Origin: Euglena gracilis
Lineage: Eukaryota
Direction of reading: 5' to 3'
Length of the DNA: 64,000 nt
Assembly (NCBI GenBank): GCA_039621445.1
Contig: CP154954.1
Location: 30,136,395 to 30,200,394 of the forward strand
Below the pieces are notes generated by a model. The model did not search any database, was not told the origin of the DNA, and saw only the letters and a program-made list of their open reading frames with translations. Below, piece after piece: positions 1,520-57,000 of the stretch (position 1 is the stretch's first letter; every line of letters starts with the position of its first letter). The position numbers and the translations under genes were made by a program.

Positions 1520-4500
1520 CTACGCCTTGCCCACCGACTTCTGCACGCGGGTCAGCAGGTCCTCCACCCGCACGTCCATCAGCGGCTGCCCCTTCTTCGT
1601 CCGCAGGCCGTAGCGTCGGTGCATCCCCCACGGTGGGCTTGGCACAACCTTTGTTGTCTCATAGGCTGGGGGGGAAACAACAGGGCAATCGAGGTTGCCA
1701 TATGGCATTTTCTGGGTTGTGTGCAAATTGAACTTTTGTCAGGCCATAAAATTGAGTGTTGTTTGTTTTTCAGAATAATGTACACCTGGGGGTATAACTG
1801 TACGTGTGTAACTATACGTAACCATAACTATATACCGGGTATAACGTATGAATGACGGGGTTCATACGTATTTTTTTTGGCAAGATGGGCACACAACCAA
1901 ACCTGGAAAAGCACCTTGGAGGCCAGCTGCCAACTGCAGTGGTTCCGGCCCTCTCCCGGCCAACCAAGGCGGGGGATGGGCGGGACTTCTGCTTCCGCGC
2001 CTGCACCTTCGTCTGCCGCCGCTGCTCGTCGAGCTGGCGCTGCACCAGCCGTTGCCGCAGCGCGGTCTGCGTCGCCTCCCGTCGCCGCCACAGCTGCCGC
2101 TGCCGGTCATCCACGTATGCCGGGGCGTCTGGCGGACGGGGGGGGGGGGTCAGTGGCGACGTTGGTGGCGCTTCCACGCAGGGAGGCGTAACGGTCCCAC
2201 CCCTCCCCAGGAATGTTGCGGATATTCTTGAATGGTCCGCTTGCACAAGCATGCAAACAAATCGTGTTAATGGTTTATTTACGCAGTTGCGCGAGCGGAC
2301 CAATACAACTCATTTTCGAAGCTATAAGAGCAGTTATTTTTCATGCTGTCTGTGATTTCAAGTTCTAAGGACAGGAGACATTGTCCATACACCTTATCCA
2401 TACAATTTCACATGCATTTTCCAGCTCCAAACAGGCTGGCATGGAAGGCTGTTGGTTGGTTTTGAAGTGGTCAGTTTATCAAAATGGGGTGTCTGTGGCT
2501 AACCTGTCACAGACGTCAATTGAAAAACTGGTGGCTATCCTCATGTATTTTGCTGACCTCATGTATTTTTCATCTCTTCTATCAAACACAAAGACAAAAA
2601 AATCTCTAACAATCAGTTGATCGTTGTGTTGGAATATGCACTCCTTTTGTACCTGACTCCAAAAAACTCCACAGGATGCAGGGCTTAAAAGAAAGCACAG
2701 AAAAAATTTTGGGTGAATTTTTGAGTAATTTCTCATTTCCTGGGGGTCAAACCGGGGTTCTAACCCGGGGGGAGCAAAAGGTGGAGGAAAAAACACCCTG
2801 GAAAATGGCGAAGATCCACGCACGGTGGCCTCTGAGTGTCACCAGCATAAAAAAACCTGTAATTGAAGTTGATGATTGTTTTTTTTAAAAAGTTGGAATT
2901 CTGCGGAATTACGCAAGACGACAGGAAAAAAGCAGAAATGCCAGATCGACTGCCTAAGAAGCAGGCAGTTTTGTCCCACACCTGAGTTCCGGAATGAATT
3001 CTATCAGAAAAAAACTGATGGATTCAATCTGCTGTAACAGATACAGAAATACAACAATCTCAGATTGTCATACCCGTCAACAGGGGCCCAGACAAAATAT
3101 GGCCAAAACCGGGCCCAAAATGGTCCTTTTCTGGACACCTGGCACCTTGGGAATTGATACCAGAGCCCTTTGGAAAAAAATGCAGAAAAAATGTAGCAAA
3201 ATCGAGGAAATTGCGGGAAAATTGCGGAAAAATTGCGGAAATTGCGGTTTAGATTAAATGCACTCCTGGTGGAGGGAACTTAAAAATTTCACACACTAGC
3301 TGCACACGGAGACGACCCCCAGGGCACTATAGGGTACATAGCAGACAGTACCAGGCAGGCACTGCGGCACCGAAGGCAGGGGGAAATTGATATCCGCTAT
3401 TTTTCCGGCCATTCGTTGAAAGTTTCACAAGGGCAACCAGGTGCTTTTTTGCTAACCCCCCCCCAAATAATAAACCCCCCCCAAATAATAAACCCCCCCC
3501 AAATAATAAACCCCCCCCTGAGGACCGACTTCGGCCGCCCAAATAATAAACCCCCCCCTCTGGCAGGTGTGAGGGCAAAGAAAAAAAGAGCCAAAAATTA
3601 GCAGAAATGTTGCAAAAAAATCACAAAAAATGGATCAAATTGGTGCAGAAAAAATGCCAAAAAAGCACCCAGTTTTCAAAAAAACCCAAAAATGCCAAAA
3701 AAGTGACCATTGGAGCCTGTGGAGGGGTTTTCGGGTCTAATTTTGACTTCGAAATTTTTGCCCAAATAATAACCCCCCCCCCAAATAATAAACCCCCCCT
3801 GGACCCCGACTTCGGGTGTCCAAATAATAAACCGGGGGGGTTTATTATTTGGGGGGGGGGTTTATTTGTTGCAAGTTTGCAAAAACTTGCTAAATTTTGC
3901 AAATTTTTACAACACACTTGGCAATTTCTTGGCCTTTTTAGGTTTTCCCCCACTTTCTGCTGTGAAATAATTTCGACTTGAAAATTTCGCATCCTGGACC
4001 AGATTTTACCTCATACCAAAGTTTTCGTCAATGCTTACCGGTTTTGGATTTCTCACCGAGAAATATCATATTTCCAGAATCAGCATGCTCCCAAAATTAT
4101 GATTTTGGACCTTTTTGCTGGCTAAAATGTCGGTAACAGACTCACATGCTGACCCAGTCAGGCACTGTCAAGGGGGGAGTGGTTGGCCCCACTTGCATAC
4201 CTGATTTTCCCCGAGACAACGTGGAGCATCACCAGGGGTTTTCTTAAGCCGGAGAAGAACGTATCCCTGGATTCAGACCCCCCCCCAATGGACCCCCACC
4301 CCCTCACAAAAATCCAGCCAGCACCTTTTTTCCCGTCAGCACCTTTCTCCAACCGCGCACAGGACCCCCCCCCCGCGGGGGGGGGGGGGGTCCTTAAGAA
4401 AACCCTGAGCATCACGCCTCCTGTGTGCCATTTTCTTTCGGGTGTCCAGCCAGCCAGCACCTTTCTTTCCAGCCAGCAGCTCCCAGCTGGGCTGTGGACT

Positions 4501-54000: not shown

Positions 54001-57000
54001 CACTTGCGTGGCCCCTTGTTTTTGGAGCTGTCGCATGTGCTTGTGGCTGCTGCTGCTGCTGCTGCTGCTGCTGTTGTTGTTGAATACACCAAGCGAACCA
54101 GGCTTCTTTTTTTTGTGACCCCCTCCCCCCAGGGAGGGGGTCACAAAACAGGCCCATCTGACAAAAAAAACTTCAAAACTCCAGTTTTCATCATTTTGAT
54201 TTACAGAATTTTGCCAATATTTTTCAGGTGGCCAGAGAACAAACCCCTCAATGCTTCATTCTCCGACCATTTTTCGACCATTTTCAAAAATTTCCGGCTC
54301 AATGGGTTGAGCCAGAATTTTTTTGGCGCAACCCAATCCCGCAGGGGGGGGGGGGGCTTGGCCGAGAACCCCCTGGGGGTGTTCTGGGTTTAAAATATCC
54401 CGGGCATCTCCCACCTTTGAGGTCATGGTCAGCCCTGGTCGCTCATCATCGCTCACGGTCGCTCATCGGTGCGGGTGAATATGAGCCGCCCTGGCCACCC
54501 ATCCCTCCATTCCACATTCCAAAAGAACTGCGATCTGAGGGGGCCTCTGACTGTGTCGGCGCGGTTGACGGCGGTGGCGTGCACGCGGATGAGCACGCCA
54601 TCCGGGTCCACAGCAGGGACTGGGATGCCGTCCTGGACGAAGAGGTCGGCGGGCCGGGGCTGCCCCTCCGAGGGCGATCGGATCTGCGGAGGGGCGGGCA
54701 ACGCTGGGCCAGCCCCAGACACGTTCCTGTGCGGGGGGCAGTGCCACACGGGTTCACTCAGTGTCCTCCGGGGGGGGGGGGGCTGGGGACAAGAACCCCC
54801 AAACCCCCACCACCCACTTCTTTTCAGGTTGGAAACCACCTGCCCACGGCTCCACTTAACGACCTCCCTCCGGGGCTTAGGCGGCCTAACTTGCACTAAG
54901 CTTTGAAAATGTCTGTAAATTTGCGCCAACGCGCAATGCCAAAGAATTTTTCTGTTTTCGAACACCGGGGCCTGAGACTCGAGACAGCCCGCATTAGTGT
55001 CTCCAAGGGCCTGGGGACGAAACCAACGACTTGGAACTCTATGGTCTGAAGGCACAGCGCTCCCGGGCCCAGTGTGCATGAATACAAAGCGCCGGGTGAT
55101 GAAACGAGGGGACTCCATTGCACAGTTGCACCTTGGCGCAACGATTGTTTTTCATTAGAAAAAATAAAACACATTGTGCTTGAGCGTAAACTTTTTAGCT
55201 TTTTTGTAATTCAACATGTGGGTGACCATTGCCATACTTGCGCAATGATGTAACATATGTGTCAACATTTGTTTCCATTGCGTCACAGCGCAATGGGCAG
55301 GCTTATGAAGAATGGAAATTTAAGAGTTACATTGCGCCAAAGCGAGAACCACAATTTTTATAATTTTATGTTAGCGGGGTGTTGCGCCAAAGCGCAATAT
55401 AACTGCTTGAAAATTAATCTTATTAATTATCATTATAAGATAATTATCATATCGCTTATGTAGAATGGAATTTTAAGAGTTACATTGCGTCAAAGCACAA
55501 TAGAAATACAATTTTAAAACTGTAAAAGCAGCGTGGGTGTTGCGCCGAAGCGCAATGTTGACCACTTTTAAGACAACGTGACCGAGGGTAGGCTTTCATC
55601 CCCCTGCTCTACATTTTTGTGTTCTATCCCCTCTGGTGTTCATCCTCTACCAAAGCCGTTCTCTCCCTCCGTTGTAAGATAATTTTCAAGCTGTTAATAA
55701 GCCTGCCCATTGCGCTTCGGCGCAACAGTTGCCAATTTTTAAGTCCTCATTTCTATCACTGCGGGTGGAGAGTCCTGGAAGCATCTCATTACCAGAGCGG
55801 ACAGAGCAAAGGTGAAGGGAAACCTTGCCTGGGACAGGAAGCAACCCCTGGTGTGTGAAAACAACCACCAACTTCTTCATATCCAGACGTCTCTTGTCCT
55901 AGGCATTGTGAGCCCAACTGCCAGTGCCGGAGGTTCCTCCCACTTGCTTCGCAGTTAAGCATGCCTGAGGTGCCCTTCTTTTGGCCAACTTTTGAAAGTC
56001 GGAAATTTTCTTTTTAAAAAAGAACAGGTACCAGTTGAACCCTTGGAATCACAGCCGAGGAAACCATTTTAGGCATCAAAAACGTGTTTTAAAGAAGCTC
56101 GTCACCCCCCTTTTCTCACCCAGTATTTGAAGCACACAACTTTGGGGATGAGCGAATGGAATTGAGAAATCGAAAGGGTCCATTAACAACGGCGGAGAAG
56201 GGAAGGCATGCTGACACATCTGTATTCCCATCATTCTCCTCAATCCCCCACGTTCTCACACAGCACGAACACATTGAAATACAATTTCTATTTGAAAAGA
56301 CGTTGTGCTTAAGCGCAATAGTTTTATCTTGCACTTAAGCGCAATGTCAAACGATTGCACTTAAGCTCAATGGTTATCGGAAGCCCCCTGAGCTTATGGG
56401 AATCCCTCTGATGTGTTACGGTGTGTCGGGGGCCCCTCTCTGCACGGCCAGAGTGTAGGCTTGGTGAGGAAATACATTGCGCCAAAGCGCAAGGGACATG
56501 CCTACATAATGCACTGCCTGTTCATTCAGATTACGTGTCAGTCCCTGGGCTTGCCCTCAATAGCCCCCAACCCCACCCACCTGGATGGTTCCTGCTGTAC
56601 CGCTCCTCGCGCTTCAAGCACCCAGCTCAAAGGCGGGAAATTTTGGCTGGCTGAAAACAAGCTGCTGGCTGACCCTCCGGCACCCCCATGAATCGAACCG
56701 GATGCCAGAAGATACAAATTGTGCCGCTTCTATATTCGAAATGTGTGCTCAGAATCGAAATTGAAAGTGTTTGTGGGCAAAAAAAACCAGGAACAACGCC
56801 TGGGGAGATTCATTCATAGCCAGGGCATCTGAAATCATCGGGGGGGGGGAGGGCAGGCCGAGTGGAAGAAGGGAAAGTTTGAGCTGGCTGCCAAAAGGGT
56901 GCTGGCTGAACCCCATCTCTGCAGGAGATGCCAACTAAGGATACCGAAGGGCCGAATGAAGAACCCCCCCCAAACAAAGGGACACATGCAACAGGACAGG

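Follow-up and report, generated by a model that had tools for sequence, protein, structure and literature searches.

Nonconventional introns interspersed with GT-AG introns in two genes of Euglena gracilis

A stretch of 64,000 nucleotides (nt) from Euglena gracilis (GenBank assembly GCA_039621445.1, contig CP154954.1, positions 30,136,395 to 30,200,394; hereafter the window, with coordinates counted from its first nucleotide) carries a Fyv7-like gene and a gene for a PIG3-type NAD(P)H quinone oxidoreductase. Together the two genes hold six nonconventional (NC) introns supported by transcript-derived proteins and one probable further case, alongside nine GT-AG introns. With a probability of roughly 0.93, these are NC introns of the ordinary kind in nuclear genes of E. 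gracilis, standing among GT-AG introns of the spliceosomal type. The class itself, its mixing with GT-AG introns, its kilobase lengths, its pairing ends and its unknown machinery are already known, all having been published between 2013 and 2025. At the level of the locus, the additions are corrected models of both genes and one micro-exon that had been missed by a reading of the sequence alone (hereafter the original prediction). Euglenid nonconventional nuclear introns are said to have been treated by Milanowski et al. in 2014/2016.

Transcript-derived proteins and gene models

Single-exon open reading frames (ORFs) of the window served as queries against EukProt. Two transcript-derived proteins, EG_transcript_24644 (P0121) and EG_transcript_24767 (P0001), match window exons at 97-100 % identity, and across the exon regions searched both are 100 % identical to the window. 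Names of the form "EG_transcript_n" come from the E. gracilis Z1 transcriptome (PMC6366073), and the window is accordingly nuclear DNA of E. gracilis.

EG_transcript_24644, one of 2 matches among 23 candidates in the search for Fyv7-like proteins, is a complete protein of 194 amino acids (aa) that matches the Pfam family rRNA_processing (PF08524, E = 1.5e-08). It maps to six exons of the window, from which it differs at 1 of 194 residues. The Fyv7-like gene, defined by this mapping, the intact ORF and the Pfam match, lies on the minus strand at 1519..8317, with coding exons at 8317-8230, 7831-7770, 5136-5068, 4914-4794, 2128-1982 and 1617-1519, the last including the stop codon. The second Fyv7 match (P0122) is an orthologue, 86 % identical, whose residues are unchanged across the three NC junctions of the gene.

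EG_transcript_24767, a partial protein of 244 aa with the domains ADH_N and ADH_zinc_N, is a PIG3-type NAD(P)H quinone oxidoreductase and was the best match of 470 proteins at E <= 0.001 (602 candidates). Over its full length it is about 97 % identical to the window. It provides residues 1-244 of the oxidoreductase model, and the C-terminal exons were placed by homology to four other proteins (P0002, P0003, P0005 and P0007). The gene, also on the minus strand, extends over 36037..57093 and encodes 352 aa in the model; its coding exons are 57093-57079, 54683-54553, 51570-51518, 51172-50991, 48665-48614, 44694-44579, 42602-42566, 41141-41092, 40747-40603, 40037-39954, 37519-37445 and 36155-36037. 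When the exons are joined, both ORFs are intact, with 194 aa for the Fyv7-like protein and 352 aa for the oxidoreductase.

The window differs from one transcript protein at a single residue and from the other at a few. In the Fyv7-like gene the window reads KLE and EG_transcript_24644 KME; in the oxidoreductase exons at 54553-54683 and 44579-44694 (minus strand) the window has SPSEGQ, QDG and AATAQ, and EG_transcript_24767 has SPPDGQ, QDS and AAAAQ. These mismatches point to allelic, strain or copy variation, and since its residues differ from those of the window, EG_transcript_24767 is taken to come from another allele, strain or copy.

Junctions that fit no canonical border

For each transcript-covered intron, all donor/acceptor pairs that reproduce the transcript protein across the junction were enumerated, the transcript evidence being at the level of the protein and not of cDNA nucleotides. 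In six introns, GT-AG, GC-AG and AT-AC options are all absent among the 3 to 12 protein-compatible junctions per intron, while the other six transcript-covered introns of the two genes each offer a clean GT-AG option. Because the transcript-derived protein fixes them, the six NC junctions are firm to within a few nt. The features of U2-type introns, i.e., GT/GC-AG borders and a CAG acceptor preceded by a C-rich polypyrimidine tract, are present in the nine GT-AG introns and lacking in the six.

The transcript-supported NC introns lie on the minus strand at 7832..8229 (i1), 4915..5067 (i3) and 1618..1981 (i5) in the Fyv7-like gene and at 51571..54552 (o2), 41142..42565 (o7) and 40748..41091 (o8) in the oxidoreductase gene; the probable one is at 36156..37444 (o11) in the latter. 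Between them stand the conventional GT-AG introns, likewise on the minus strand. In the Fyv7-like gene these are 5137..7769 (i2, 2633 nt) and 2129..4793 (i4, 2665 nt), both supported by the transcript protein. In the oxidoreductase gene 51173-51517, 48666-50990, 44695-48613 and 42603-44578 are transcript-supported, and 54684-57078, 40038-40602 and 37520-39953 were assigned by homology and sequence.

The original prediction had listed six NC introns that share their genes with GT-AG introns. The enumeration confirms the mixing in both genes, the share of 3 NC introns among the 5 of the Fyv7-like gene, and the length of up to 3 kb, since the 2982 nt of 51571-54552 are noncanonical according to EG_transcript_24767. 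Four listed introns (7832-8229, 4915-5067, 1618-1981 and 51571-54552) stand on transcript proteins, but the borders proposed for another, 40775-42565, cause a frameshift on joining.

The borders of all 7 NC introns can slide, with direct repeats of 1-7 nt and 2 to 8 equivalent positions each; it is this short direct repeat flanking each intron that makes the exact border position ambiguous. For E. agilis, 84 % of the introns are described as having slidable borders (PMC12501133).

Pairing of the intron ends

The pairing capacity of intron ends was expressed as E10, the RNAfold energy (in kcal/mol) of the two terminal 10-nt segments connected through a U7 linker, which follows a test published in PMC11170887. 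According to the portion of that article available, terminal pairing is missing in about 3 % of NC introns versus 35 % of GT-AG introns. In the window, with borders set at the slide positions of the original prediction or at those favoured by the splicing code discussed below, the seven NC introns have a mean E10 of -7.21 (range -4.7 to -9.4) as against -2.39 for the nine GT-AG introns in these two genes and -2.12 for 3000 random pseudo-introns from the same strand, 30 % of which score zero. Mean energies of 30-nt duplexes are -24.0, -15.4 and -11.9 kcal/mol, respectively. By Mann-Whitney test of E10, the NC introns differ from the GT-AG introns (p = 0.0013) and from the random set (p = 2e-5), whereas GT-AG introns do not differ from random (p = 0.49); the 30-nt duplexes also separate NC from GT-AG introns (p = 0.008). 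At the level of the group, the complementary ends claimed in the original prediction are real.

The published code and the individual introns

Nomura et al. 2025 (PMC12501133, consulted in part) used knock-in mutagenesis to define a splicing code, 5'-N3CDG ... CH'G-N5-6|R. In the same part of the article the code is found in 61.2 % of the NC introns of E. agilis, with 38.8 % lying outside it. In the window the strict code occurs in 2 of 7 NC introns. The 153-nt intron 4915-5067 matches it exactly, with GGC-CAG ... CTG-TGGGG|G, an E10 of -7.6 and a duplex energy of -27.4. The second exact match is 51571-54552 (AGT-CAG ... CTG-AGGGC|A), the longest of the set, for which 0 of 3 junction options are canonical; its E10 is -4.7 and its ends are paired in the global minimum free energy (MFE) structure.

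The other introns deviate in several ways. In 7832-8229 (398 nt; 0 of 8 protein-exact junctions canonical), the 7-nt direct repeat TTCCACC at the borders creates eight equivalent positions (7829..7836). Its 3' half (CTG-N5|A) is compatible with the code; on the 5' side, however, CGG stands at +6..+8 instead of +4..+6, i.e., two nt too far; E10 is -6.8 and the 30-nt duplex -20.4. The 364-nt intron 1618-1981 is outside the CDG/CH'G code and has an 8-bp helix, CATCCCCC/GGGGGATG, in which CAT (+4..+6) is paired with ATG (-7..-5). Its E10 is -8.2 and its duplex -31.5, and the terminal helix is seen in the whole-intron MFE. A terminal 8-bp helix, CGGCTGCC/GGCAGCCG, is also formed by the ends of 41142-42565 (1424 nt; 0 of 4 options canonical; E10 -9.4), where the 3' side reads CCG-N5|G and the 5' CGG is at +5..+7, with a spacer of 4 instead of 3. 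Tandem units of 43 nt and 17 nt, of the GGGGTGACAATTGCCC type, form two blocks within this intron, at 42009-42431. Finally, 40748-41091 (344 nt; 0 of 6 options canonical) has CGG-CAG on the 5' side and, 3 nt from the border, the 3' partner CTTG with one bulged T. Only 2-3 nt separate its helix from the 3' border. Owing to a 5-nt direct repeat there are six equivalent positions, and E10 and duplex energy are -6.2 and -22.7.

All these introns resemble euglenid NC introns in that they come from the same organism, lack GT/GC-AG borders (36156-37444 probably so), are slidable, have pairing terminal inverted repeats and are mixed with GT-AG introns. Their lengths of 153-2982 nt fall inside the published range, and two carry the exact N3-CAG ... 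CTG-N5|R. The catalogue of E. gracilis introns by Gao et al. 2024 (PMC11170887) has 28,337 entries, 16,151 of them (57 %) NC, and the longest NC introns in this species reach 4,682-5,931 nt. Five of 7 depart from the strict signature by a 5' spacer of 4 or 5 nt, by CAT/ATG in place of CAG/CTG or by a 3' spacer of 3 nt. Since 38.8 % of the NC introns surveyed in E. agilis do not carry the signature (PMC12501133), this deviation can be taken as known variation. With only 61.2 % of the E. agilis introns carrying the code in the same source, the strict code is not obligatory for class membership.

Two neighbouring classes share isolated features with these introns. At the equivalent border 51570-54551, the long oxidoreductase intron starts with GT, which recalls the euglenid "intermediate" introns (PMC4770533), where pairing termini go together with one canonical end. 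However, it never ends with AG, its code-compatible position starts AG and ends GC, and it is no GT-AG/NC hybrid. One equivalent border of 41142-42565 starts with AT as in U12-type AT-AC introns. A U12/AT-AC reading was rejected: the intron then ends with CC, not AC, and the conserved U12 5' splice-site box was not recognised by eye, no scan having been made.

A micro-exon between two nonconventional introns

The interval 40775-42565 had been proposed as a single NC intron. Its 5' border at 42565 and the noncanonical nature of the flanking junctions hold, but since EG_transcript_24767 carries 17 residues encoded at about 41092-41141, the interval is made up of two NC introns, 41142-42565 and 40748-41091, around a 50-nt micro-exon at 41092..41141 on the minus strand. 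Mapping of the transcript protein places this exon between o7 and o8, and the 17 residues are accounted for by the exon together with split codons at both junctions. None of the 9 aligned quinone-oxidoreductase homologues has this insertion.

Skipping of the micro-exon, with a junction from 42565 to 40747, would keep the reading frame. The corresponding outer intron, 40747-42565, was rejected as a single unit: although in frame, its ends pair at the random level only (E10 -3.8, duplex -12.4). A small exon between NC introns that can be skipped in frame recalls the atypical exon-skipping and overlapping splicing events of E. gracilis reported in part of PMC11170887. Unlike in those events, no transcript without the micro-exon was seen here, and the termini of the outer intron pair only as well as random ones.

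Extra micro-exons or shifted GT-AG sites in the transcripts were the very outcome that the original prediction had named as speaking against it, and more generally the NC junctions might be artefacts of gene modelling that such sites explain canonically throughout. An extra micro-exon did turn up inside 40775-42565, and in-frame GT-AG (36170-37428) and GC-AG (36170-37437) alternatives are available for 36156-37444. However, the new junctions on either side of the micro-exon are themselves noncanonical, so that the number of NC introns increases, and none of the 3 to 12 protein-compatible options is canonical in any of the six transcript-supported introns. The GT-AG alternative at 36156-37444, for its part, brings in 11 Gly/Pro-rich residues foreign to the homologues and an acceptor with 35 % pyrimidines. 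A canonical explanation of all junctions is therefore very improbable.

The C-terminal intron of the oxidoreductase gene

For the 1289-nt interval 36156-37444, the borders were set by homology and the ends are of the GGGGCCCC pairing type. In a gap-free alignment the homologues place the join at QL(R/H)PVVH, a position compatible with no canonical border, and the termini pair strongly (E10 -7.6, duplex -29.6). A search for an E. gracilis transcript protein covering the C-terminus scored 0 of 51 longer-protein candidates, and a second search returned 6 matches, none from E. gracilis, proteins of 43-136 aa being outside the search. The 6 matches carry either R or H before PVVH and hence do not resolve the join.

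It is conceivable, though clearly the less favoured option, that this interval alone is a conventional GT-AG intron flanked by longer exons, the remainder being NC. The alternative 36170-37428 has GT-AG borders, is in frame and free of stops, and the searches returned no transcript protein for the junction. It would add 11 Gly/Pro-rich residues, and with the GC-AG alternative the cost ranges over 8-11 such residues. None of the aligned homologues has the 11-aa insert, whereas the minimal join aligns gap-free to the family. The acceptor of 36170-37428 is also weak, being purine-rich with 35 % pyrimidines in the upstream 20 nt, compared to 65-90 % in 9 of 9 GT-AG introns here. With the strong pairing of its ends, 36156-37444 is probably nonconventional.

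Points against the assignment and a rival origin

Several observations weigh against the assignment of these intervals to ordinary NC introns. The transcript protein used for the oxidoreductase is incomplete and shows a few mismatches to the window, and 36156-37444 is without transcript support and has the in-frame, stop-free GT-AG alternative described above. Five of the 7 introns are off-code at every equivalent border. The E10 values depend on the slide positions at which they were computed; averaged by hand across all equivalent borders, they still amount to -4.1 to -7.7 per intron. In whole-intron MFE structures the terminal helix appears in 3 of 7 NC introns versus 2 of 8 GT-AG introns (a 3.9-kb intron was left out), such that this type of folding does not separate the classes. 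Lastly, at 23 sites inside 51571-54552, pairing with the 5' end is equal to or stronger than that of the true 3' end. Competing internal sites number 5 in 36156-37444, 2 in 41142-42565 and 1 in 40748-41091, and there are none in 7832-8229, 4915-5067 and 1618-1981; the true 3' end is thus without an internal competitor in 3 of 7 NC introns, and in 2 of these it pairs better than any other window. Hence the original prediction was fair in pointing to the problem of how two ends find each other over 3 kb of RNA.

A pseudogene or paralogue in the window, broken by transposon insertions, with the matching transcripts stemming from another, uninterrupted locus, is the least probable reading of all: the few mismatches of EG_transcript_24767 would agree with it, as would the short direct repeats and inverted-repeat ends of all intervals, which resemble insertions of miniature inverted-repeat transposable elements (MITEs), an origin discussed in part of PMC12501133, but removal of the intervals leaves both ORFs intact and at full length, with 1 of 194 residues differing in the Fyv7-like protein, the same genes contain nine normal GT-AG introns, and most introns of E. 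gracilis are NC introns with the very same features (PMC11170887).

Possible mode of excision

For ordinary NC introns of this kind, the splice sites would be drawn together by the complementarity of the ~10-30 nt at either end. A non-spliceosomal machinery might then recognise the terminal helix (in its canonical form, CAG at +4..+6 with CTG at -8..-6) and cut a fixed few nt outside it; the NC intron would be released, reportedly as a circle, once the conventional introns are gone. These last steps are drawn from the literature. Guminska et al. 2018 (PMC6221363) state, in the part of the text available, that conventional introns are removed first and NC introns later. The accessible text of PMC12501133 reports circular excision and genes that in many cases hold both intron classes, and suspects a MITE-like origin. 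It still calls the trans-acting factors unknown, in line with the view of the excision machinery taken in the original prediction.

In the window, the overhangs beyond the terminal helix add up to about 4 to 10 nt, where 8-9 is canonical, and CAT/ATG occurs in one intron. One might speculate on this basis about a second mode of excision, measured from the helix and independent of sequence. The position of the micro-exon between two off-code introns could likewise reflect a recent exonisation of the interior of a former single NC intron. We regard this reading as rather unlikely. The off-code majority and a lineage-specific micro-exon in such surroundings are of mild interest. The sample is small; most of its natural NC introns are outside the strict code, and they are potential substrates for the existing knock-in splicing assay.

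Other features of the window

Between the two genes lies part of an SNM1/DRMBL gene (22681..32385, minus strand), of which three exons were located: HFHTDHY at 32327-32385, GDFRY from 29295, and SEHSS/DRMBL at 22681-22771. The DRMBL match (E = 9.7e-10) makes the last of these the sole SNM1 exon that scored in the Pfam scan (314 ORF queries, some ORFs repeated); the two others were identified by short sequence motifs. The flanks inspected, all from these three exons, are canonical in 5 of 5 cases (three CAG| acceptors and two |GT donors); that all ten introns of the SNM1 core are GT-AG is a proposal of the original prediction. The Fyv7-like gene, the oxidoreductase gene and the located SNM1 exons are co-oriented, all being on the minus strand between 1519 and 57093.

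Rfam and tRNA scans of the window gave no match. Three plus-strand ORFs of 428-521 codons (10220-11503, 16606-18033 and 21070-22632) lack a credible Pfam match and were discarded as simple-repeat or GC-rich artefacts.

Poly-G/poly-C runs and dense dispersed repeats, as are typical of Euglena nuclear DNA, occur in the window. The content of repeats (sequences repeated within the window) does not separate the intron classes, at 0-37 % of NC versus 0-34 % of GT-AG intron bases. Long simple repeats are found within conventional introns, namely (CA)n of about 140 units at 50674-50954, a 121-nt poly-A run at 38915-39035 and (TA)28 at 38095-38150. A dispersed unit of ~17 nt, of the CCAAATAATAAACCCCCCC type, recurs in several introns (3440-3860, 37675-38025 and 48354-48508) and forms an inverted pair near 3821-3860.

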